Shown: positions 4,822-24,043, counted from the stretch's first letter. The stretch is DNA of 64,000 bases from Acidobacteriota bacterium (GCA_031425275.1 JANPJA010000057.1:1-64000); one strand, 5' to 3'. The notes: generated from the sequence alone by a model not told the origin. Program-made: numbers and translations.

Positions 4822-5352
4822 ATGACGAAAAGAAACCTGATCGCGGTCGCGCTGTTGTGCGTAGTCGCGCTCGTGGGCTTCGGTCTGCTGCGCACGTCGG
4901 CGACGAGCGCCGGTTTGCAGAAACCTCAGCACGCCGAAGGCGGCCCCGTCATCGCTTTAGACAAGTTACCCGGCGTCGAGATTGTGTCGCGCGAGTACGT
5001 TCCCGACCCGGAGAAATACGGCCACGGCACCCTCAGAATCAGAATCAAGGATACGACGGGCCGGAAGGTCAAGGCGTGGACTTTGACTACGAACACGGGC
5101 AGCAGCAATCGCTCTGTCACCACCTACCCCCGCGACGGTACGAGTGACTACGCCTTCTACACTGAAATCGGGGTGCAGGAAGACGCAACCACCTCACTCG
5201 CCATCGCCTACGAAGACGGGGGCGTCGTTGGTAAGAGTAAAGCGGCTGTCAGGGCGCTAAGGGACAGTCTCAAAAAGGTAGAGGCCAGCGACGCCAAGAT
5301 GGACAAAGAGCGGGCCAAAATCCAAAAGGAGGAAGTAAAGCGGCAGCAATAG
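4822..5352 (+). CDS. Hypothetical secreted/membrane-anchored protein
   Basis: 176 aa. AAGGAG RBS 7 nt upstream, N-terminal signal/TM segment LIAVALLCVVALVGFGLL and a Lys/Glu-rich C-terminus. No recognisable domain. Confidence 0.6.
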   Translation: MTKRNLIAVALLCVVALVGFGLLRTSATSAGLQKPQHAEGGPVIALDKLPGVEIVSREYVPDPEKYGHGTLRIRIKDTTGRKVKAWTLTTNTGSSNRSVTTYPRDGTSDYAFYTEIGVQEDATTSLAIAYEDGGVVGKSKAAVRALRDSLKKVEASDAKMDKERAKIQKEEVKRQQ

Positions 5353-5387
5353 ACTCACGGCCTTTGCTAACCGTATCACGACACTAA

Positions 5388-6608
5388 ATGAGAAAAGCAC
5401 CAGTCAGAATTGCAATCACCCTTGCGGCGTTGTTCCTCATCGCGCCGCTCGCCATCGTCACCATCTTCGTCGACGAGGCGGCTGCCGAGAGTTGCCCGAC
5501 GTGCGCCTTTTCAGCTACGCCCTACACCTTCCCGACCGCCCACGTCACCGCAACACCCACGTCGAACACTTTCAAGTGGGAAGAAAGGTGGTTGTTCTCT
5601 TACAGCAACGGTGGTGGTCATCCGGCCTATGGCCCGTACACGCAAGTTGTGTGGGCTATGGGCGACCGTATCTACAGCAATGCCCAACCGGATGCAGGCG
5701 ACTGCTATCCCATCTTTCCGGCGGCGTCGGTAGTCGTTTCGCAGACCTTGTCAACTTCTAATCAGTACACTCTCAAGTGGAATAAGATTGTCTACGACTC
5801 CTCTCGCTCCCTTCCCCTTCTCAACTGCAACCTGACGACTCCGGCGAGCGGCACGGTAGCGCGCGACTGGTCTATGGAACACTTCTGCGCTCCTTGCACC
5901 TACGGGGACGAGACGACGGAGGAGGGGTGCACGACGGCCGGGTGGTACTGGAACTACACCGGCTCAAACTGCCAACAAGACCCTTGGTACTGTGAAAACG
6001 AGCCTGATTGCGAGGTCGGGTGGAATTGGAATTTCCAGACCTGTAGTTGCTTCTACTCCGCCTCGCCCGTCCTGATCGACACGTCAGGGAACGGCTTCAA
6101 CCTTACGTCGGGGCCACTCGGCGTGGACTTCGACCTCGACGGCGACGGTGTGCGGCAGCGCCTCGCGTGGACGGCCGCCGACTCCGACGACGCATGGCTC
6201 GCCTTAGACCGCGACGGCAACGGCCTGATCACGACGGGCGCGGAATTGTTCGGTAACTTCACCGAGCAGCCCGACCCGCCTCCCGGCGAAGAGAAACAGG
6301 GCTTCCTCGCCCTCGCCCAGTACGACAAGCCTGCCGGCGGGGGCAACGGCGATGGGATGATCAGCAATTTGGATGCGATCTTCTCGAGCCTCCGGCTCTG
6401 GCGGGACGCCAACCACGACGGCTTCTCGCAAGCCTCGGAACTCAAGACGCTGAACGGGCTCGGCCTCAAGTCCATTGACCTCGACCATCGCGAGTCGAAG
6501 CGCACGGACGAGCACGGCAACCAGTTCAAGTACCGCGCGATGGTGCGCGACAAGAACGACGCGCGGCTCGGCCGCTGGGCGTGGGATGTGTTCCTCGTCG
6601 CACCGTAG
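5388..6608 (+). CDS. Secreted Cys-rich hypothetical protein with C-terminal EF-hand/dockerin-like calcium-binding loops
   Basis: 406 aa with a signal peptide and many Cys in the N-terminal half. The C-terminal half carries repeated DxDxDG-type loops (DRDGNGLITTGAEL, GNGDGMISNLDAIF, DANHDGFSQASEL). It is followed by a terminator. Confidence 0.65.
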   Translation: MRKAPVRIAITLAALFLIAPLAIVTIFVDEAAAESCPTCAFSATPYTFPTAHVTATPTSNTFKWEERWLFSYSNGGGHPAYGPYTQVVWAMGDRIYSNAQPDAGDCYPIFPAASVVVSQTLSTSNQYTLKWNKIVYDSSRSLPLLNCNLTTPASGTVARDWSMEHFCAPCTYGDETTEEGCTTAGWYWNYTGSNCQQDPWYCENEPDCEVGWNWNFQTCSCFYSASPVLIDTSGNGFNLTSGPLGVDFDLDGDGVRQRLAWTAADSDDAWLALDRDGNGLITTGAELFGNFTEQPDPPPGEEKQGFLALAQYDKPAGGGNGDGMISNLDAIFSSLRLWRDANHDGFSQASELKTLNGLGLKSIDLDHRESKRTDEHGNQFKYRAMVRDKNDARLGRWAWDVFLVAP

Positions 6609-6997: not shown

Positions 6998-8911
<1,914 letters not shown>

Positions 8912-9007
8912 CTCGCGCCCCGACCGAAACTGGATCATTGGAATTTAGGGGAGACGTATAATGGACTAAAGTCTTGAGCGGGCTTCGGACGTGTGTTAGC
9001 GGCGGCG

Positions 9008-9802
9008 TTATTTATTTTGCCGAGACATGACGATCACCGCTCGGTTATCGCCCCCCGCGATGGTTTTGGATCGCACGCTCAGGGTATAGTTCATAATCTG
9101 CGTGATCCACGCCGTGGTGGGGACGTTGATGCGAACTATCAGGCGCTGTTGCCCGCCGCCGGCCATGAGCCAGTCCGTTTGAGAGATCGCTGACTCCTTG
9201 TCCTGATGTATTCCATCGCCGTTGGTGTCGTCGTAGGTAATGGCAGAGGCCCCGGCCGGTGCATCAACGCGCAATTCAAAGACCCCCGGTTTTTTACAAT
9301 TGTTTTGAACGATTACCCTCACGTAGGCCGTTTCACCCGGCTCCACCTTGATGGGCGTCTTCACCGCGAGTACCGAGAGACACTTGCCGCGCGCACGTTT
9401 GCTCTTCCGAACCGGCTCGTTACTGCTCACCGAACTCTCGTGAATGACGATTGTCTCAACGTCACCTTCCTTCTTTATTTTCACAAATCTTGCGGGAAAC
9501 TGATATGCACTCCCCACACAAGCGTTCACCGTGTAAATATCGGGAGACAAGTTCTCAAACGCAAATGCTGCTCTTCTAGCTGTGAGCTTTTTCTGATTCC
9601 TGGTGCGTTGGTTTGTCAACACGACGACGCAGGGAAAGTACACAGTTCCATCTAATGTCTTGAGCTGCCCGCGGATCGCGCTGCCGCGTTGCGGCGGATG
9701 AGCGAGGAATGTAGCTCCCGCTTGCGCGTTGTATGATTGCAATAATACGGCGGTGAGCAAATAGATCAGGCTGTAATGGACGCGGCGCGAAATTGGGAGC
9801 AT
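9008..9802 (-). CDS. Hypothetical secreted beta-rich protein (island gene C)
   Basis: 264 aa with a signal peptide and no confident domain (a DUF11/CARDB-like stretch PGETAYVRVIVQN is possible). It lies in a roughly 50% GC region, far below the window average. The gene is separated by 4 nt from the upstream gene (stop 9807, start 9802). Confidence 0.6.
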   Translation of the reverse strand: MLPISRRVHYSLIYLLTAVLLQSYNAQAGATFLAHPPQRGSAIRGQLKTLDGTVYFPCVVVLTNQRTRNQKKLTARRAAFAFENLSPDIYTVNACVGSAYQFPARFVKIKKEGDVETIVIHESSVSSNEPVRKSKRARGKCLSVLAVKTPIKVEPGETAYVRVIVQNNCKKPGVFELRVDAPAGASAITYDDTNGDGIHQDKESAISQTDWLMAGGGQQRLIVRINVPTTAWITQIMNYTLSVRSKTIAGGDNRAVIVMSRQNK

Positions 9803-9806
9803 GTGC

Positions 9807-11054
9807 TTAACTCCTGACGATTTGCTGCTTAGACTTTTCGATCACATCGATAGTCGTTGCGATGGCTTCGCTCAGTTTTCCGAGCGCATATTTTAAGTCG
9901 GCCTCTTTTTCGTCGTTCACTTCCTTCAACACTTGCGCTCGGAGGCGCTGTAGCCCACTCAGAGTCTCGTCACGACCTGCGAAGCCCTTGTCCCACTCAT
10001 TCCCTAAGCTAACCACCGCCTGCCTTCGCGCCTCTCCGCAGCTACCCGTCGCAGCGATTTGCAGCAGAAATGCCCTCGTGTCGGCGTCGGGGGAGAGGCC
10101 GAGGAAGTGCGCCGCTTTCTGCATCGCTTTGACCCGCGTGTCGCGGCAGTAAGTCTGAGGCGCGAAGTGCTTTATCAGGTAACCTACTACGACCTGCCTC
10201 CTATTATCGTCATTAAGATCAGGCTCCAATCGGATAAGGCACACCAGCGCCCCTTCTTGTAGGCGCGCGTCTTTCGATTGCATGTATTTAATTAAGTCAT
10301 CGAACAGCTTCTGCCGCATCCCTGCCTTCTTGGAATCAACATCCTCCAAATGGAATAAGTGGTAGACCACTTCGGCCATGTTTTCGTGCAGGTTATCAAG
10401 TTCGATGCTGAGGGCTTGTCCGATGACCGGTAGTGTCTTATCGCCATGTTCGGCCAACGCCATCAACGCGCCACTCTTTTTCCTGATGTCTCCGTCCAGA
10501 ATCTCGCGGAAGATGTCAGCCCGCAATTTACTCAGATCATCCTCATATTGCCGGGCTTGAGTATTCGCTTGGAGTTGCGAGGCTTCGGCTTGAGTTTTTG
10601 AGGCGTCGGCGAGCACCTTCTGGATGTTTCCTTGTTTCCAAATGACGAAGGCTGTTAAAGCCGCCGCGATGGACGTGAACAGCACCGGAATGAAGTTGAG
10701 GAAACGAACTTTTTTCGTCTCGTCCAGCCTAATATTTAATGGCCTGTCTCCGAGTGTTATCGCAACCGGTAGATTTTCGGCGGGGGGGTTGAGGGTCAGT
10801 CTGAGTGGGGGAATACTCAAATTCTCAGGGAGACTTAAAACGAATTTATCCGGCATCGGGGCCGTCTGAGTGAAGTTTTCCGGTAGCCCAATGGAGATTT
10901 TGTCTTGTATTACGAGCCGCAGGGGTGGGTGGCTCTCATTCATGACTCCGAGGGAGGAGTGAATGTAATCTATATCGGGGAAGCTGTCCCTCTTTGTTTG
11001 GTCAGTCGAAGGTTGCTGCCCGTCATGGCCAGCCCCGAATTCGTCAGTGGTCAT
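9807..11054 (-). CDS. Hypothetical single-pass membrane protein with a LPEN-repeat N-terminal region and a HEAT-like helical C-terminal domain (island gene B)
   Basis: 415 aa with one TM helix (FLNFIPVLFTSIAAALTAFVIW). The helical repeat segments (GALMALAEHGDKTLPVIGQAL, RLQEGALVCLIRL) are HEAT/PBS-lyase-like. It is a low-GC gene. Confidence 0.6.
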   Translation of the reverse strand: MTTDEFGAGHDGQQPSTDQTKRDSFPDIDYIHSSLGVMNESHPPLRLVIQDKISIGLPENFTQTAPMPDKFVLSLPENLSIPPLRLTLNPPAENLPVAITLGDRPLNIRLDETKKVRFLNFIPVLFTSIAAALTAFVIWKQGNIQKVLADASKTQAEASQLQANTQARQYEDDLSKLRADIFREILDGDIRKKSGALMALAEHGDKTLPVIGQALSIELDNLHENMAEVVYHLFHLEDVDSKKAGMRQKLFDDLIKYMQSKDARLQEGALVCLIRLEPDLNDDNRRQVVVGYLIKHFAPQTYCRDTRVKAMQKAAHFLGLSPDADTRAFLLQIAATGSCGEARRQAVVSLGNEWDKGFAGRDETLSGLQRLRAQVLKEVNDEKEADLKYALGKLSEAIATTIDVIEKSKQQIVRS

Positions 11055-11305
11055 TCGGGAGGTATCCTTTGTGAGATGAGGTGGAAGAACCTTTGCCGCG
11101 TTCTGGTAGAGTAAAAGGCGTTTCGTAAGGTGGCGATTTTAGATGGCAGCAGACACGGCGAGGGATTTTCTAACTGCGGCCGTCCAGTGAAGTAACCAAT
11201 CTGAGCCGTAACTAATTACTCCCGTAATTAAGTGTTGTCAAGAAAGTTATTCGATTTGCAAGAATTTGCTCCGCTTCGCAGCTAGAACCTGCGGATAATT
11301 TTTCT

Positions 11306-11334
11306 TGCCTTTCTCGCCACCCGCTGTAGAATGG
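11306..11334 (+). promoter_or_regulatory. Candidate promoter TTGCCT-N16-TAGAAT for island gene A
   Basis: The hexamers sit in an AT-rich divergent intergenic region. A long GC-rich leader of about 145 nt follows before the ATG at 11482. Confidence 0.3.
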
Positions 11335-11481
11335 CGCGCGCCGGCGTCCTCAACTCCGCTCGCCGGCACTATTCAAGCGGACACTGTGCGGGTACTCACG
11401 CGCGGGCGACTCGGCCCCGTCGCCTCTCACCACCCGGCTCTCAACTCGCCACCACGGGTTGGCGGAAAGCTGCTTCGCACC

Positions 11482-12369
11482 ATGGCAACCACCGGCAAAA
11501 TCAACATCGGACTCTTCGACGGGGCGGGCAATAAGTGGGACGGCCCCGAGGCGGTCGTCACCCTCCGAGACCCGTTCACCAATTCGGATAACAAGAAACC
11601 GAGGAAGGTGGAGGTTCCGCGCGGCAAGCACACCGTCAGCATCAATGATGTCGCCGCCGACGCGGGACAGAGGTACATCGTCTTCGTTGACGCCGACAAG
11701 CATCGCAGCCACGCGGTCTTCCCCGTCAAACCACGCCCCAACGCTGTCACCTCCGTGCGGATGATGCTCATCCGCAACGACCCCGAGCCGGACTTCTCGA
11801 AATTCAACTACAAAAAACTACTCACCCAAGCGCCGGAGTTTCACGACGCGCTGAGTAAGAACATCACCGAGTCAGACCTGCTCGGCCTCGCCAGGACTGA
11901 CGAGAAATTCGGCCTCATCCGCATCGCCTCGCTGCTCAACATCGAGGCCAAGCTGCGCGCCCAGTCGCTCAGACTGGGATCGGGCGGCAGCTACGTCAAG
12001 TTGGTCGAGAAGATCGAATGCTGCGAGCGCGACCGCATCAAGGTTTTCGTCAAGCCGCAGATGCCCGCCCACGTCGCCGAGATGGACACCTTCAGCGAAC
12101 TTAACGAAGACCTGAACGAGTTGAACCACGCGGGCTTCCCCGTCAGCTACAAAGAAAAAGTCCCGTTCGGCAGCCTCCAGCTTTCGTTCGCCAAAACGGC
12201 CGTCACGAAAGGACTGGAGGCCGACATCGACATCGATCTTTTCACCGACATCGGCCACTTCGGCGAAGTGGTCAAGAATAAGATCACCAAGACCAAGACC
12301 GATCCGTTCAGCATCTACGTCCAGCTCTTCGATCAGAACGTCCGCCCGCTCTACACGCTGAAAGTGTAG
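11482..12369 (+). CDS. Hypothetical cytoplasmic protein (island gene A)
   Basis: 295 aa from the first ATG (MATTGKIN). The longer TTG-started track ORF from 11305 is GC-rich and likely non-coding. No recognisable domain. Intermediate GC. Divergent from genes B and C. Confidence 0.55.
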   Translation: MATTGKINIGLFDGAGNKWDGPEAVVTLRDPFTNSDNKKPRKVEVPRGKHTVSINDVAADAGQRYIVFVDADKHRSHAVFPVKPRPNAVTSVRMMLIRNDPEPDFSKFNYKKLLTQAPEFHDALSKNITESDLLGLARTDEKFGLIRIASLLNIEAKLRAQSLRLGSGGSYVKLVEKIECCERDRIKVFVKPQMPAHVAEMDTFSELNEDLNELNHAGFPVSYKEKVPFGSLQLSFAKTAVTKGLEADIDIDLFTDIGHFGEVVKNKITKTKTDPFSIYVQLFDQNVRPLYTLKV

Positions 12370-12452
12370 GCCCGCGTCGTCGCGCCGAAAATTCTTAATT
12401 CCCTCACCCGCGCGGGCACACTCACCACCCGGCCGGGGGTAGGAGACCAGCC

Positions 12453-15400
12453 GTGCCTCACACTCACCTGAGGCTGACTGCGGCAATCCTCAACGCCGCT
12501 CTCGCCTGTGGCCTCGCGTTCAACTCCGCGCGCACTCAAAACAGCGCGCCGCGCCGCCTGACAATCACACCGGCCCACGCCACGAACCTGAACCCGTCGC
12601 TTAGCGGCGACGGCCTGCGCGCCGCTTTTGAATCGACGGATGACCAGACCGGCGCGGGCGGCTCTCCGCAATTACGCGCTTTCCTCGCTGACTTATCCGG
12701 CGACCCACCCGCACTCGTTCAAATCGCCGCCTCGCGCGCGCCCTCCGCCGCCCTCTCGCAGGACGGCTCGCGCGTCGTCTTCGCGAGCGCCGAAGATTTG
12801 ACGGGCGGGAACCCCGACCGCAACTCCGAAATATTTTATTTCGACGGTACGGCCCTCAGCCAATTTACCGCGACAACGCCGGAAGACGCGGCCACGCGCA
12901 CCCGCGATGGTAACTTCCAGCCGACCCTCTCCGACGACGCTCAGTTCGTCGCCTTCTCATCGAACCGCGACCTCGCCGGCTCAAATTCTGACAGTAACTT
13001 TGAAATCTTCGTCTATGACACGGCCGCTCGCGGCTTCACACAGATCACAAACACCGCCGGTGTGGTGGGCGCGACCGGCGCGAAGTTGAGCGGAGGCGGC
13101 ACGCACGTCGCCTACGTTCGTGACGGCGCGTTAAGTGGTTCAGCCGACGAAACTCGCCGCAATCTGATTCTCTTCGACCGACGCTCGAACAGCGGACGCA
13201 TGATTGTTGAAGACACGCCGGGCCTCGCACTGTCGCCGGGCCGCGCCGTCAGCGACGACGGCACGCGCGTCGCCTATGCTGCGGAGGATGCGGCGGGCGC
13301 AAGTCAGGTGTTCATCTTCGACGGGCGCAACGAGGTGACGCGCCGACTCACGTCTCTCGGCACGCGGGCCGCGGACGTGCCGCTTCATCCCACGATCAGC
13401 GGCGACGGCTCGCGCGTCGCATTCGCCACGCGCCGCACCGTCTTCTCCGGCGAGCCGAGCGGGGGCGTCGATCTTTTCCTTTTTGATCTGCCGAACAATA
13501 AGCTCACGCGCGTGACGGACGCGACATCGCGGGCCACCGCCGAAGTCGTCTCGTCGCTCGACGACGCAGGCTCTGTCGTCGCGTTCAACTTCCCGCGCGT
13601 CCTGATTGACCCGTCAGTGCCGGACGAGTTCGCCAACACCTCCGAGATTTTCCTCGCGCGACTCAGCGGGCGGCTTCCCTTCTCGACTGATCTCGAAATC
13701 CTAAACGGAGCATCGTTAGCCCGTGCGGCCGATAAACCCCTCGCGCCCGGCCAAATCGTCATCGCGCGCGGCGGGAATCTCGCGCTCGTCTCGGCCCGCG
13801 CCCTCCCCGCCGCAGACAAATCTTTCCCGCGTGCCTTCAAGGGTGCAGTCGTCACCGTCAACCATCGCCCCGCGCAAATTTTTTACGTCTCACCAACTCA
13901 AATTAACTTTCAAATCCCGGACGAGACCGAGGCCGGGGTAGCCCAAGTAGTCGTCCGTAACCACGAAGGCTACGAGTCGCGCACCGAAGTCCGCATCGCC
14001 CCTGCCGCGCCCGGCGTCTTCACCGAGAGCGGCGACGGGCGCGGGGCGGCCATCGCCCTCGATGCCGCCTACCAACTCCGCGGCCCGTTCGACCCGGCGG
14101 GAGCAGAGAACACGCCGCGCCGCCTGTCAATTTTCTCGACGGGCCTGCGCCATGCGCGCACCGTCTCGGTCACGGCCGCCGGCTTCACTTTGCCCGTCGA
14201 GACGATTGTCGCTTCACCCGACTTGCCCGGACTAGATGAAATCCACGTCCTGCTGACACCACGGCTCGCGGGTGCGGGTGTCGTGCCGTTGGTGATCACC
14301 GCCGACGGGCAAACGAGTAACGCCACGACGCTTCACTTTGTCGGCTCGCGCCGCCCCGCGCGCCTCGTGCTCACTCCGCCCGACGCCGCGCTCGGCGTCG
14401 GCCGATCTTTGCGCTACTCCGCCGCCGTCTTCGACGCGGACGGATTCGAGATCAACGGCGCGCCGATCACTTTCACATCCACCGACTCAACCGTCGCGTC
14501 GGTCGATACGAACGGACTGACGCGCGGCCTCCGGGCCGGCGTCGCCACGATCCGCGCCGCTTCAGGAGACGTTGACGCGACTTCGAGGCTGCGCGTCCAC
14601 GACCTCTCGCTTGTCATCAATGAAGCGCTCGCCGACCCGCCAGACGGCGCGGACGGCGACGCCAACCGCGACGGCACACGCAACTCTTCGCAAGATGAGT
14701 TTGTCGAGATCGTCAACGCGGCAGCGGCCGACATCGATCTCGGAGGTTACACTCTCGCCACACGCGCACCCGGCGGCGCGCAAACGACCAGACACATATT
14801 CGCGGCCGGCAGCGTTCTCGCTCCCGGCACGTCCGCCGTCGTCTTCGGCGGCGCGACCCAGTCCACTCTCAACCCACGCGACCCGGCATTCGGCGGTGCG
14901 TTCGTCACGACGGCTTCAACCGGCGGTTTGTCGCTCGTAAACGGCGGCGCGACGATCACCCTGTTCGATCCATCCGGCGCGTTCGTCGAAGAACTATCTT
15001 ACGGAGACTCAGGAGGCCCGGAAGGTGATCGCAACCAGTCCCTTACGCGCGCGCCAGACGTGGCGGGCGATTTCGCGCCGCACTTGACAGCCGCGCCCGC
15101 CCCGCCCCGCGCCTACTCGCCCGGCACGAAGTTGGACGGGATGCCGTTTCTGCCAACTGCGCCCATTGCGCGGATCGAGATCACCCCTGCCACTGCTTCC
15201 GTCGAGGTCGGCCGCAACCGACAATTCAACGCGCGCGCGTTCGCTCCTGACGGGCGCGAGCTACAAGGCATCATCTTCCATTGGATATCGAGCGACGCGA
15301 CGGTCGCAACCATTGACGCGAGTGGACACGCACGCGCTCTCAAGTCGGGCACGACGGGTATCGTCGCGCGTGCGCGGGGCGTCGAGTCTCCTTCCGCCTC

Positions 15401-17744
15401 GTTAACAATTGTGACGCCGCCGGCGCGCGTGGTGCGCGTCGAAGTCTCTCCGTCAGCCGTCAGCGTTAACCGCGGCGGCTCGCAGTTGTTGACGGGCCGT
15501 GCCTTCGACCGCGACGGCCAAATCGTTTCGGACGCGGTTTTCAGTTGGGGAACGAGCAACGCATCAATCGCGACGATTGATGCGAGCGGCCTCGCTCGGG
15601 CCGTGGGCTTCGGGCGCGTGACGTTGTCGGCATCCACCCCGGACGGCGCGGGCGGGACTGTCGGCGCGGCGGCGACCCTCGACGTGCTGTTGCCGCTCGT
15701 GCTCAACGAACTGCTCGCGGACGTGCCGCCCGACGACCCGGCAACGGCCGCCGTCGAAGGCGATGCGAACCGTGACGGGGTGCGCCGTTCGGATGACGAT
15801 GAGTTCGTCGAGCTGTTGAATGTTTCAACCGCGCCAGTCGATCTCACCGGCCTGATCCTCTCGGACTCGTCGAACGTTCGCTTCACTTTCCCCGCGGGCG
15901 CGACGCTCGCGCCGGGCCGCGCCGTCGTGGTCTTCGGCGGAGGCGATGCGCCGCCCCACGATCCAAACTTCGGCGACGCGCTCGTCTTCACTGCCTCCGC
16001 GCTCGGACTCAACGACGGCGGCGACACATTGAATCTCAAACTCACCGTCGGTAACGACGACGTGACAATCCTGTCGCAAGGTTACGGCACGCAGGGCGGC
16101 CCGCCCGCTCCCAACAATGCCTCGCTCACGCGCTCGCCGGACGGCGAAGTCAACTCAGCGGGCGGCGGCCTCGTCGCGCACACCTCGGCGCATAATGCGT
16201 CGGGCCGCTTCTTTTCACCCGGCACGCGCGCCGACGGCACTCCCTTCGGCTCGGCAACCCTCACTCGGATCGCCATCTCGCCGCCCGCCGCGACCCTCGA
16301 CATAAATGCCACCCGCGTCTTTACGGCGACGGCTTACGCCGAATCAGGCGGCGCGGAGTTAGCGATTAATAACGTCTCATTTATTTGGGACGTGAGCGAC
16401 ACGTCGAAGGCTTCGCTCGCGCCGACGACCGGTCAGTCAACTTTGCTCACCGCCCTCGACGACGGAACGCTGACACTTCGCGCACGCTCCGGCGGCCGCG
16501 AGGCAACGGCTAGCATCACCATCAAAGCGCCCCCGCCCGTCCTCACGCGCGTCGAACTGTCGCCCGTGTCCGCGAGTATGATTGTCGGCGAGTCACGACA
16601 GTTCAACGCGCGGGCTTTGGATCAATACGGCCAACTATTACCCGTCGAGTCGTTCGACTTCACTTCTAACGCGACGGAGAAAGCGACGGTCTCTGCCGTC
16701 AGTTTCACAACCGGCAGTTTTGAAGCCGTCGCGACCGTGACGGCCCGCGCGGCGGGTGCGGCGCAACTAACGGCCGTCGCCACCGACGGCCCGCGTGGCG
16801 TCACGAGCAACACGGCGACCGTCGCCGTCAACAATCCGCCGCGCGTCGTCACACGCATCAACGTCACGCCAACTTCCGCCACGCTCGGCGTCGCCATGAC
16901 GGGGCAGTTCACGGCGCGGGCCTTCGACCAAAACGATCAGGAGATGAGTAACGTCGCCTTCAACTGGGCGACGAGTGACGCGAACGTGGCCTCAATCGAC
17001 GCGGGCGGGTTGGCGACCGCACACAACCCCGGCGCGGCGCAGATTCGCGCCAACGCGGGGACGGTCGCCAGCCCGCCCGCCGGGTTGAGCGTCACCGCGC
17101 CGCCCGTCCCCGCCGCCGGTCAGGTCGTCCTCAACGAAGCGCTCACCGCCTTCTCCTCATCGACCACGCAGACCCGCGCCGACTTCGTCGAGCTATACAA
17201 CCTGACCGACCGCACGCTCGACATCAGCGGACTTGTCATCTCTTTCCGCCCCGGCGGCAACACGAGCATCGTCCGCACGATCACCCTGCCCGGCGCGGCC
17301 GGCAGCGACACGCTACGCATCCGCCCGCGCGGCTACTTCCTCATCATCAACGGGACGCAGACCTTCGGCGCATCAATCTCGACCCTCGACGGCCGACCCG
17401 ACGGCTTCGACGCGAGCAGGTCGGCCACCGACATTGTCGCGGGCGTCGGCGTGGCTTCGACGTGTGCCGGCACGGCGAACTGTTTTGATCTCAACGGCAC
17501 GAGCGGCGGCATCAAGATCGAGATCGGCGTCGTCAAGCTCGACGGCCTGAGTTACCAGAGCGGCGCGACTCCCCCGGCCGCCCCGTTCAGCTCATACGGC
17601 GAAGGTTCGATCCTGATCTACACGAGCGGCGCGACGAACGATCTTATTCGCACTCCGAACGCCGCCGACTCCAACAACAACGCCACCGACTTCAAACGCA
17701 ACGGCACGACCGGGAGCGTCACGCCCAAGGCGGCTAACCCTTGA
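12453..17744 (+). CDS. Giant secreted/cell-surface protein with PD40 (TolB-like) propeller repeats, multiple Big_2 Ig-like domains and three lamin-tail (LTD) domains
   Basis: 1763 aa with a signal peptide. PD40-like repeats include SxDGSRVVFAS..DRNSEIFYFD. Several Big_2 units have the form ISPxxATLxVGxxxQFxAxAFDxxGxxxxxxxFxWxSSDxxVATIDxxGLARAxxxG. There are three LTD motifs (LVINEALADPP..GDANRDG..DEFVEIVN and two more). Confidence 0.85.
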   Translation: MPHTHLRLTAAILNAALACGLAFNSARTQNSAPRRLTITPAHATNLNPSLSGDGLRAAFESTDDQTGAGGSPQLRAFLADLSGDPPALVQIAASRAPSAALSQDGSRVVFASAEDLTGGNPDRNSEIFYFDGTALSQFTATTPEDAATRTRDGNFQPTLSDDAQFVAFSSNRDLAGSNSDSNFEIFVYDTAARGFTQITNTAGVVGATGAKLSGGGTHVAYVRDGALSGSADETRRNLILFDRRSNSGRMIVEDTPGLALSPGRAVSDDGTRVAYAAEDAAGASQVFIFDGRNEVTRRLTSLGTRAADVPLHPTISGDGSRVAFATRRTVFSGEPSGGVDLFLFDLPNNKLTRVTDATSRATAEVVSSLDDAGSVVAFNFPRVLIDPSVPDEFANTSEIFLARLSGRLPFSTDLEILNGASLARAADKPLAPGQIVIARGGNLALVSARALPAADKSFPRAFKGAVVTVNHRPAQIFYVSPTQINFQIPDETEAGVAQVVVRNHEGYESRTEVRIAPAAPGVFTESGDGRGAAIALDAAYQLRGPFDPAGAENTPRRLSIFSTGLRHARTVSVTAAGFTLPVETIVASPDLPGLDEIHVLLTPRLAGAGVVPLVITADGQTSNATTLHFVGSRRPARLVLTPPDAALGVGRSLRYSAAVFDADGFEINGAPITFTSTDSTVASVDTNGLTRGLRAGVATIRAASGDVDATSRLRVHDLSLVINEALADPPDGADGDANRDGTRNSSQDEFVEIVNAAAADIDLGGYTLATRAPGGAQTTRHIFAAGSVLAPGTSAVVFGGATQSTLNPRDPAFGGAFVTTASTGGLSLVNGGATITLFDPSGAFVEELSYGDSGGPEGDRNQSLTRAPDVAGDFAPHLTAAPAPPRAYSPGTKLDGMPFLPTAPIARIEITPATASVEVGRNRQFNARAFAPDGRELQGIIFHWISSDATVATIDASGHARALKSGTTGIVARARGVESPSASLTIVTPPARVVRVEVSPSAVSVNRGGSQLLTGRAFDRDGQIVSDAVFSWGTSNASIATIDASGLARAVGFGRVTLSASTPDGAGGTVGAAATLDVLLPLVLNELLADVPPDDPATAAVEGDANRDGVRRSDDDEFVELLNVSTAPVDLTGLILSDSSNVRFTFPAGATLAPGRAVVVFGGGDAPPHDPNFGDALVFTASALGLNDGGDTLNLKLTVGNDDVTILSQGYGTQGGPPAPNNASLTRSPDGEVNSAGGGLVAHTSAHNASGRFFSPGTRADGTPFGSATLTRIAISPPAATLDINATRVFTATAYAESGGAELAINNVSFIWDVSDTSKASLAPTTGQSTLLTALDDGTLTLRARSGGREATASITIKAPPPVLTRVELSPVSASMIVGESRQFNARALDQYGQLLPVESFDFTSNATEKATVSAVSFTTGSFEAVATVTARAAGAAQLTAVATDGPRGVTSNTATVAVNNPPRVVTRINVTPTSATLGVAMTGQFTARAFDQNDQEMSNVAFNWATSDANVASIDAGGLATAHNPGAAQIRANAGTVASPPAGLSVTAPPVPAAGQVVLNEALTAFSSSTTQTRADFVELYNLTDRTLDISGLVISFRPGGNTSIVRTITLPGAAGSDTLRIRPRGYFLIINGTQTFGASISTLDGRPDGFDASRSATDIVAGVGVASTCAGTANCFDLNGTSGGIKIEIGVVKLDGLSYQSGATPPAAPFSSYGEGSILIYTSGATNDLIRTPNAADSNNNATDFKRNGTTGSVTPKAANP

Positions 17745-22380: not shown

Positions 22381-23430
22381 TCACGAGTGGCGCACGGCGC
22401 GGCGCAGCTCGGCCGCATAGCCGTCGGCGCTCGCGCGGACGAGGATGGCCGCGCGCCCGCTCGCGAAACGGGGCAGCCAAGCGTGGACGACGGCCACGCC
22501 GTCCTGATCGGTTTTAGAGGTGAGGATCAGCGGGCGGAACTCCGTGCCCAGAACTTTCACCGTCACCGCCGCATCAACCACGGCCTCGCGCGAATCAATC
22601 GGCCCGCGGCTGACCCGGACGCGCAGCGTCACAATCTCGCCCGCGCGGTAGTCGCGCTCCTCCAGCAAATTCACGTACAGCTCGCCGTCGATTTCGACCG
22701 GGATTAATTCCCTCTCCGACGCCTGCGGCGTCTCCGGCCAAGCGTCCGTGAGGGGCGCAGCAGCCGCGACGTGTGCGGCCTCCCGCCCCGACTCCGTCGG
22801 CCCCGCCTCGGCCTCGACGGAAATCGGCTCGGCCGCCCCCGGCGTTGCTTCGACTGCCGGCGACGGCGGCGCTGCCGGCCGGACTTCCTCTCGGGCCGTA
22901 CGAGACTCGACGACAGGCGGCGGCACGGGCGCGAGAACTTCGGCCGGTGGCGGCTGGGGCAGTGACGGCGCGGGAGGAGTCAGGGCCGGGGGCGTTTCCA
23001 CGGCGCGGCGCGCGCGATGGCTGCCCGCGCTTAACGCTTCGTTCTCACGCTTGTTGAGCCGCTTGAGTTCTTCGATACGGCCGGAGGTGATGGCCCGACA
23101 AATCAGTGTGTGCTGACGCTGAAGACGCTCGCCAAGCGCGGCCGAGTCGAAGTCTCCTCCCAGCAGATCGGTGTAAGGCGAACGCTTGCTCGCGAGGATG
23201 GCCCCGCCCACATAGACGAGCGAAAGTATGAAGGGCGTGTCAAGGCCCTTGTCTTCGGTCTGGACGTGATAGACCACGCCTTCGTGCTCTACGTCGGTGT
23301 TGAATCCGGTGATCACGGCGACACGAGATGCGGAAGAAAGCGACGAACGAGAGTGGTAATATCTATAAAAAGTGCGGCGAAAAAAAACAGTAGCACAGCC
23401 CCCCGACACGGTCAATCTCCTTAAAAACAA
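22381..23430 (-). CDS. Hypothetical protein with a Pro/Ala-rich central linker
   Basis: 349 aa ORF with a clean frame. The conserved-looking N- and C-terminal segments are separated by a low-complexity PAPS-rich linker. The true start is uncertain. Confidence 0.45.
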
Positions 23431-23446
23431 TCACTTTGCGCACTGC

Positions 23447-23475
23447 TTGACAGCCCCCAGAGGTTGGCTTAACAT
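23447..23475 (+). promoter_or_regulatory. Sigma70-like promoter TTGACA-N17-TAACAT upstream of nuoA
   Basis: A consensus -35 and a 4/6 -10 with optimal spacing lie about 80 nt upstream of the nuoA start codon. Confidence 0.45.
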
Positions 23476-23554
23476 CCGTTTGTGCCATCATTCTCAAACT
23501 GAATTCGGGTGTTAGAAAAGGCCGCGCCCGGCGCGACGCTGACGGGAGACCTTT

Positions 23555-24043
23555 GTGGGTAACTTTCAGCTCGGGGACTATTTCCCCATCTTGCTCATGT
23601 TCCTGCTGGCGATGGTTTTCGCCGGGGGCAACATCATTCTCTCGCAGCTCGTCGGGCAGAAGAAGCAGACGCGCACGAAGCTGATGCCCTACGAGTGCGG
23701 CAAAGACCCGGTCGGGTCGGCGCGCGAGCGGTTCTCGGTCAAGTTCTATCTCATCGCGATGATCTTCATCCTGTTCGACATCGAGATGATCTTCCTGATG
23801 CCGTGGGCCGTGGTCTTCAAAGATTTGGCGGCGCGGAATTCGCCCGTGCGCGGCGTCATCTTCTGGGAGATGATTTTATTCATCGGGCTGGTGGCCGTCG
23901 GCTTTGTTTACGTCTGGAAGAAGGGCCTGTTCGACTGGGGCCAGCGAGCGCGGCAGGAGGCCGAGGCCGAGGGCCGCGCCCTCGCGCTCGTCGAAAGACG
24001 CGCGAACAAATTGAACCAAGACCGTCTAGGCCGCGCGGCGTAA
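23555..24043 (+). CDS. nuoA: NADH-quinone oxidoreductase subunit A
   Basis: [21 protein letters not shown]...[28 protein letters not shown] matches the NuoA/ND3 family. It has a C-terminal extension of about 40 aa. Confidence 0.9.

Follow-up and report, generated by a model that had tools for sequence, protein, structure and literature searches.

A syntenic low-GC gene pair of predicted envelope proteins in a variable slot of an acidobacterial genome

Three adjacent genes at positions 9,008 to 12,369 of a 64,000-nt stretch of DNA from an Acidobacteriota bacterium (GCA_031425275.1 JANPJA010000057.1:1-64000; the whole stretch is called the window) were analysed. Gene M codes for a membrane-anchored helical protein, gene S for a predicted secreted protein, and gene C, transcribed divergently from both, for a protein of 295 aa. 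M and S are a genuine, previously undescribed two-gene envelope module. With moderate confidence we regard this pair as an old, vertically kept envelope operon in an acidobacterium of the Pyrinomonadaceae/Blastocatellia group, and gene C as a separate gene which shares a variable slot with it. A sequence-only reading of the same DNA had described all three genes as one horizontally acquired module. The open reading frames (ORFs; 264 aa, 415 aa and a third gene of 295 aa from ATG 11482), the M-S gap of 4 nt, the LPEN motifs, the single transmembrane helix, the HEAT-like region and the GC-rich (0.67) leader of approximately 150 nt were all confirmed, and the tight pairing of M and S was borne out in further lineages.

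M lies upstream of S, and the two genes are separated by 4 nt (9803-9806). Order and spacing are conserved in at least four lineages, the window and three other metagenomic lineages. In the window the order is metF, S M, C, giant, where metF is the gene of a homocysteine S-methyltransferase/methylenetetrahydrofolate reductase fusion and giant the gene of a large surface protein (Table 1). The other three lineages (L001/L002, L016/L017 and L018) show metF, S M, giant, with M-giant gaps of 737, 494 and 340 nt. The metF-type gene of the window is 82% identical to the orthologues in L001, L016 and L018, which carry PF02574 and PF02219; for the giant protein the identity is 55% to L001, 74% to L008 and 47% to L016. 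Across the four M-S lineages, pairwise identities are 82-84% for metF, 28-45% for M and 31-44% for S. Thus, as the pair occupies the same slot in all of them and its proteins have diverged so much further than metF, it is old at this site and fast-evolving. A putative promoter upstream of M would give the operon a leader of about 150 nt. The pattern TTGACA-N17-TAACTA was also found upstream of the L001 orthologue; a consensus promoter scan passed over the site in the window, as its -10 box lacks the final T.

Gene C is not part of the M-S unit, because it does not co-occur with the pair, has a promoter of its own and shows a host-like GC content at third codon positions (GC3). No remnant of gene C was detected by tblastn (E <= 1) in the M-giant gaps of L001, L016 and L018, and neither M nor S was found at 13 other gene C loci. 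Three of these (L005, L006 and L007) have the order metF, C, other genes, giant, without M-S. L008, the closest relative with context (giant protein 74%, gene C 69% identical to those of the window), also lacks the pair and has the order metF, 990-aa protein, 115-aa ORF, C, giant. At eight further loci gene C stands in unrelated surroundings, e.g. after Peptidase_S8 and GMC oxidoreductase genes. The metF-giant interval is a variable slot, and M-S and C are independent occupants of it which are both present in this window only.

The content of the slot in L008 (846-4223) was also inspected. The 990-aa protein combines a periplasmic phosphonate-binding domain with a patatin phospholipase domain (Phosphonate-bd/Patatin) and is accompanied by the 115-aa ORF.

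Table 1 Features of the M-S/C region in the window
Feature	Position	Strand	Description
Left anchor (context gene)	6998..8911	+	637-aa homocysteine S-methyltransferase/methylenetetrahydrofolate reductase (MTHFR) fusion, metF-type
Gene S	9008..9802	-	264-aa secreted protein, ORF call
Gene M	9807..11054	-	415-aa single-pass membrane protein, ORF call
Putative M-S operon promoter	11213..11241	-	TTGACA (11241-11236), 17 nt, TAATTA (11218-11213); read from sequence
Gene C promoter	11305..11332	+	sigma-70-like: TTGCCT, 16 nt, TAGAAT
Gene C 5' leader	11333..11481	+	GC-rich (0.67), ends in conserved GGGCGGAAAG ribosome-binding region
Gene C	11482..12369	+	295 aa, without signal peptide; start ATG 11482
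Right anchor (context gene)	12453..17744	+	1763-aa surface protein, PD40/Big_2/LTD type (architecture from orthologues)

Protein M begins with a variable, Pro-rich N-terminal tail bearing LP(E/D)N motifs (residues 1-115). A single transmembrane helix (121-139), a Gln/Ala-rich coiled coil (approximately 144-186) and an ARM/HEAT-like alpha-solenoid (approximately 190-415) follow, the latter with Cys303 and Cys339, which are conserved also across the M family. In the AlphaFold model, residues 1-169 have a predicted local distance difference test score (pLDDT) below 50, and the helical hairpin repeats at 200-415 reach 78-91. Foldseek returned generic TOG, ARM and HEAT folds including designed ARM proteins (E 1.4e-3 to 4e-2, TMq about 0.3), and HEAT_2 (PF13646) scored 21.7 bits against a cut-off of 27.7. 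By an exhaustive HMMER search of 1.84 billion representatives with M and P0122 as query, 57 family proteins were obtained at E <= 1e-3, 29 of them at E <= 1e-10. With two exceptions they are 132-456 aa long, and the 24 aligned members have a common layout. P0122, P0124 and P0125 are orthologues of M; the word-index search alone gave one relative, and the metagenome locus scan with alignment A7 gave 3 loci only. No relative of M was found in GTDB species genomes. The motif RIPVQVF-EES just before the transmembrane helix is conserved in the family. The N-terminal tail is hypervariable and is absent in several members.

The orientation of M in the membrane was assessed with 26 family sequences, each with one transmembrane helix. 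The mean number of K+R is 3.15 on the N-side and 2.31 on the C-side of the helix, and these flank charges slightly favour a topology with the N-terminus inside and the C-terminus outside. Export of a tail longer than 100 aa is improbable in the absence of a signal peptide. M would be anchored in the inner membrane by its one helix, the short variable tail being most likely cytoplasmic and the coiled coil and solenoid most likely periplasmic.

Protein S has a signal peptide with cleavage after AQA near residue 28, as read from the sequence. A CarboxypepD_reg-type beta-sandwich (approximately 40-115) at the N-terminus is followed by a second beta-rich domain with an EF-hand-like loop, D192-x-N-x-D-G-x-x-Q-x-x-E203, which is invariant among the orthologues. 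Four Cys (58, 95, 141 and 169) are invariant in the orthologue alignment. Because of the signal peptide, the EF-hand-type loop and the four Cys, S is predicted to be an exported protein, possibly Ca-binding and disulfide-bonded. In L001, L016 and L018, M is immediately followed by an orthologue of S (31-44% identity). The assignment of the N-terminal domain of the window protein to CarboxypepD_reg is derived from these orthologues: the L001 orthologue (E = 1e-65 to S of the window) matches PF13620 (CarboxypepD_reg) with 40.2 bits, above the gathering cut-off of 32.3, and those of L016 (22.8 bits) and L018 (17.2 bits) stay below it. The word-index homologue search for S returned the query alone, and the orthologues were recovered via synteny. 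Calling such genes ORFans after a word-index search alone would mislead, since orthologues of S exist in public data.

The genes downstream of M-family members follow a common rule. For every member with readable downstream DNA the next gene is on the same strand, mostly at -14 to +14 nt. In seven of the eight informative contexts, which represent distinct branches of the family, the product of this gene starts with a CarboxypepD_reg domain; the spacings are 4, 8, 4, 14, 9, -14 and 1 nt, as is typical of translational coupling. In the four window-type lineages the partner is the short S protein. L019/L020/L022, L023 and L024 have a partner of some 550 aa which combines CarboxypepD_reg with DUF5666, alanine-zipper and OmpA domains (truncated in L023 by the end of the contig). 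The partner in L025 is an Oar-type receptor of 1290 aa with three CarboxypepD_reg domains, a Plug and a TonB-dependent barrel, and that in L027 (at least 429 aa) begins with CarboxypepD_reg. The exception is L026 with an Oar-like barrel 195 nt downstream, for which a head domain was not detected. L021 was uninformative, as its M-like gene stops at the contig end. CarboxypepD_reg matches were found for none of approximately 78 other genes of the same neighbourhoods, a count that is incomplete and for the giant proteins holds among the matches listed. The rule ties M to the CarboxypepD_reg domain itself and not to one partner architecture.

At L019 (1538-8703) and also at L020, a distant pair of M-like and OmpA-type genes has as neighbours a DDE transposase and two proteins containing Effector-associated domain 7; DUF4062 is present in one of the two as well. 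Both domains are adaptor domains of conflict systems.

The anatomy of both proteins and the partner rule suggest a mechanism. S would be exported via its signal peptide, and the periplasmic solenoid of M may bind the N-terminal CarboxypepD_reg sandwich of S or of the respective cognate partner. In this role M would serve as an adaptor or tether, anchored in the membrane, for proteins beginning with CarboxypepD_reg; in the distant relatives, OmpA-type peptidoglycan-binding proteins and an Oar-type TonB-dependent receptor would take the place of S. The binding of the sandwich by the solenoid, and with it the adaptor role, is proposed tentatively.

Alternatively, the adjacency of M and CarboxypepD_reg genes may have no binding meaning, M acting alone (e.g. 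as a cytoplasmic scaffold) or merely sharing its regulation with the neighbour. ARM/HEAT solenoids are typically cytoplasmic, and the evidence for the topology of M is weak. Furthermore, CarboxypepD_reg proteins are abundant in the phylum (PMC6434023). However, the rule applies to seven of eight contexts with coupled spacing, spans three partner architectures and has no counterpart among the other neighbourhood genes covered. The improbable export of the long tail also argues for a periplasmic solenoid. We consider an adjacency without binding unlikely.

The domain in question is known from larger transporters. In SusC- and Oar-type transporters the N-terminal extension (NTE; CarboxypepD_reg, PF13620/PF13715) is periplasmic and immunoglobulin-like (PMC7782687; bioRxiv 10.64898/2026.09.16.752182). 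It is needed for growth in one SusC system (PMC7782687) and dispensable for PopC secretion by Oar (PMC6434023). A partner of the NTE has not been identified, and a role in TonB pairing is merely hypothesised (PMC7782687; bioRxiv 10.64898/2026.09.16.752182). The partners of the M family begin with the same domain, and that of L025 is a full Oar-type receptor. In contrast, S of the window is small and soluble, stays below the Pfam threshold and lacks a Plug, a barrel and a TonB box. No M-like protein is described together with SusC or Oar in the literature consulted. The neighbour rule gives the M family as a concrete candidate for the NTE partner. In its general form, the M family would comprise hitherto unrecognised inner-membrane coiled-coil/solenoid adaptors which dock on the CarboxypepD_reg domain of Oar receptors, OmpA-type proteins and small S proteins; so far-reaching a role is speculative and rather unlikely. 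If true, it would represent a new trans-envelope coupling in Acidobacteria and a testable answer to the question what the NTE binds.

The layout of M resembles that of TonB and of TolA-Pal. M is predicted to be held in the inner membrane by a single N-terminal anchor and to extend a long helical part into the periplasm, and its gene lies beside that of a partner bound to the outer membrane or peptidoglycan; in the distant relatives L019 and L024 this partner carries an OmpA/Pal-type domain. Unlike TonB and TolA, M has no TonB_C or TolA domain and no Pro-rich periplasmic linker, and the solenoid replaces the small C-terminal globular domain. No Pfam match to TonB_C, TolA, FecR, zf-HC2 or RskA was obtained for M or 10 relatives, and no ExbB/ExbD or TolQ/TolR genes were found near the M loci. 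M thus shows neither the domain and spacer nor the ExbB/ExbD partners of the TonB family, and the likeness is an analogy of layout, without homology or membership.

The composition of the pair was examined with regard to its origin. In 500-nt windows GC is 0.65-0.69 at 7000-9000, drops to 0.50-0.556 at 9001-11250, is 0.58-0.62 across gene C and returns to 0.65 and above beyond 12250. The GC of 9008-11054 is 0.531, compared with a mean of 0.650 (sd 0.034) for the remainder of the 64 kb (z = -3.5); no other trough in the whole window is as long or as deep, the minimum being 0.492. The dip reported before over approximately 9000-11300 was thereby confirmed. GC3 is 0.623 for M, 0.638 for S, 0.838 for gene C, 0.911 for the metF-type gene and 0.783 for the giant gene. 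M and S are the sole outliers among the ORFs with a coding-frame signature in the window, whose GC3 otherwise lies at 0.75-0.91, so that a deviant codon-position composition, as expected of a genomic island, was found for these two genes (0.62-0.64) and not for gene C. The total GC of the latter is lowered by codon positions 1 and 2 (composition rich in Lys, Asn, Phe and Asp). Because its GC3 is host-like, the anomaly is limited to the two genes M and S, and the deviation postulated for all three genes held for this pair and failed for gene C.

A recent acquisition of M-S alone as an islet from a donor of lower GC would agree with their GC3, which is below that of every other real gene in the window, and with the variation of the slot between relatives, L008 being without the pair. 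However, position and orientation of the pair agree in four lineages at 28-45% protein identity, and GC3 is low in each of them (M 0.62-0.71, S 0.64-0.76, metF 0.82-0.91); over such divergence synonymous sites would have adjusted to the host. The low GC is thus a standing property of M-S, since a foreign signature would not survive, and probably reflects weak codon selection or low expression. An island would further leave the site empty in lineages that diverged before its acquisition; the pair is present in L001, L016 and L018 and absent from L005-L008. No tRNA was found in the 64-kb window and no integrase in the flanks of the pair, where metF and gene C are the neighbours. Flanking direct repeats, which the sequence-only reading had proposed to look for, were short and chance-like, and none was convincing. 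Relatives of M were absent from viral contigs and plasmids as well as from the GTDB species genomes. Recent horizontal acquisition, as proposed earlier, is unlikely for M-S, and the islet from a low-GC donor is quite improbable. The pair shows that a compositional island need not be foreign DNA: it is a persistently low-GC, fast-evolving resident, and calls for caution with transfer calls based on GC.

A signalling function of M was considered as well. Like FecR, which acts with the STN domain of FecA-type receptors, M is predicted to cross the inner membrane once, and its gene neighbours that of a receptor whose additional N-terminal domain the periplasmic part of M would recognise (STN precedent, PMC7782687). 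M could respond to the state of its CarboxypepD_reg partner on the periplasmic side and pass the signal on via the N-terminal tail, and the conserved motif before the transmembrane helix would be consistent with this. In contrast to FecR, no FecR domain was found, nor zf-HC2 or RskA; an extracytoplasmic function (ECF) sigma gene is not next to any M locus seen, and the cytoplasmic tail is hypervariable and dispensable, being absent in several members. Neither a Pfam match nor a sigma gene places M among FecR-like anti-sigma proteins, and a trans-envelope signaller of this kind is very improbable.

Several points weigh against the interpretation of M-S as an old envelope operon with M as adaptor, next to a separate gene C. 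S of the window has no PF13620 match, and related sandwich families reach merely 14-18.5 bits, below threshold. The contact between M and S is inferred, and the charge bias toward the N-in topology is weak. The neighbour rule is based on 8 informative contexts among 57 family representatives, and the partner in L026 has no detectable CarboxypepD_reg domain. As this domain is common in Acidobacteria (PMC6434023), some of the adjacency could be due to chance. Related M-S pairs may conceivably have entered the slot independently of each other. No particular activity of gene C is backed by a ligand, a fold relative or a conserved neighbour.

The start of gene C was assigned to ATG 11482, as 58 of 58 aligned homologues begin with MAxTG there. 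The ORF is open from 11305, and the TTG at this position falls within the conserved -35 box of the promoter and is not the start. This promoter was the only promoter-like site reported by the consensus scan of 8800-12600 and is also conserved ahead of the homologues in L005, L007 and L008. The sequence GGGCGGAAAG at 11459-11470, 10-20 nt before the start codon, is kept in L003, L005, L007, L009 and L014 and is likely an extended ribosome-binding region. The leaders of 11 gene C loci align poorly except for the promoter and the GGCGGAAAG box. A riboswitch in the leader was considered and dropped, as there was no Rfam match at E <= 1 in 8800-12600 and no structure-like conservation.

At least 156 homologues of gene C were found, with 55-85% identity and nearly all of 294-296 aa; P0002 (85%) and P0003 (81%) are the closest of them. 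The gene is present in seven GTDB species, six of them metagenome-assembled genomes of Pyrinomonadaceae or Blastocatellia and one classified as Acidobacteriota only. The protein is predicted to be cytoplasmic. Its model (pLDDT 90.2, predicted template modelling score 0.89) shows an N-terminal transthyretin/CarboxypepD_reg-like beta-sandwich (1-100) and a C-terminal alpha/beta domain (105-295). In the alignment of 58 homologues 57 columns are invariant, among them N153, E155, R159, D184, R185, N212, N215, H216, D248, D250, D252, D256, H259 and E262 of the C-terminal domain. Because of this cluster of invariant Asp, Glu, His, Asn and Arg, gene C might code for an enzyme, probably a metal-dependent one, an assignment made with low confidence. 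Gene C was without Pfam match, and the profile search of PDB sequences was empty. The matches to PDB structures cover just 80-115 residues approximately (TMq <= 0.27), the comparable hits being beta-sandwich proteins; for the C-terminal domain of 190 residues, compared as part of the whole model, no neighbour was found among PDB structures. This domain may be a new enzyme fold. The top structural match, SleC (9h68), extends over about 108-115 residues (TM 0.26), so that little of the C-terminal domain could be covered, and the features of a SleC-type spore cortex lytic transglycosylase were not found. Gene C represents a well-conserved, lineage-restricted and confidently modelled family of soil Acidobacteria.

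Two further ideas on gene C were rejected. A bacterial gasdermin was considered because of the protein size and the S8 protease neighbours in some loci, but there was no PADLOC match and no gasdermin among the fold matches listed. A 295-aa protein directly upstream of the gene C homologue in L003 (9047-9934) looked like a tandem paralogue and is unrelated (hhalign probability 0.1).

In L009 (2092-11453), L014 and L015, gene C follows the genes of a 1231-aa Peptidase_S8 and a GMC oxidoreductase, and two ATP-grasp genes run convergently to it. Near gene C in L003 there are an S8 peptidase and an animal-type peroxidase. Such surroundings could be a functional hint for gene C.

A function of gene C together with one of its conserved neighbours (metF-type enzyme or giant LTD/Big_2 surface protein) is suggested by its location: it is the first gene after metF in L005-L007, and in the window and L008 the giant gene follows it immediately. 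However, gene C possesses a promoter and leader of its own, further genes intervene in L005-L007, and neither neighbour was found at 8 of the 13 other gene C loci (flanks of up to 8-10 kb; four contigs were much shorter). Gene C also lacks a signal peptide, and the giant protein is exported. Such a functional link is highly doubtful.

M, S and C as one horizontally acquired accessory module of the defence, stress or toxin-immunity kind are barely conceivable: the genes are adjacent, M-S is divergent from C, curated annotations are missing and GC is low across the block, but the trio co-occurs in this window only (three other M-S lineages are without C, and 13 other C loci without M-S), gene C has its host-like GC3 and conserved promoter, no component of PADLOC-DB 2.0 matched M, S or C at E <= 1, the PHROGs scan of the three proteins gave no match above threshold, C like M has no relatives in viral contigs or plasmids, and the neighbours are housekeeping genes (metF-type fusion, ThiG, PTR2 transporter, S9 peptidase). 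The module and its defence setting, as suggested by the sequence-only reading, thus failed the co-occurrence test which that reading had itself proposed. The claim of a new mobile three-gene system falls, and a false lead is removed. The description of the proteins as entirely unannotatable in the sequence-only reading was partly right. None of the three proteins of the window passes the thresholds of Pfam, NCBIfam or PADLOC; the L001 orthologue of S passes that of CarboxypepD_reg, the N-terminus of gene C is transthyretin-like and the C-terminal half of M is ARM/HEAT-like.

Gene C is bracketed by an exact 13-nt repeat, CTCACCACCCGGC (11426-11438 and 12421-12433). No longer similarity was seen in a local alignment, and the repeat is probably due to chance.

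A second variable slot was observed on the other side of metF at 4822-6608. It contains two unannotated ORFs of 176 aa and 406 aa with lower GC (0.57-0.61), neither of which is present in the corresponding interval of L001. The longer product carries a signal peptide and, in addition, several DxDxDG loops of the EF-hand or dockerin type. The second-deepest GC dip of the window lies at 23001-23900 (minimum 0.542) and spans the 5' end of the ORF 22381-23430(-), a gap of 124 nt and the start of the ORF 23555(+).

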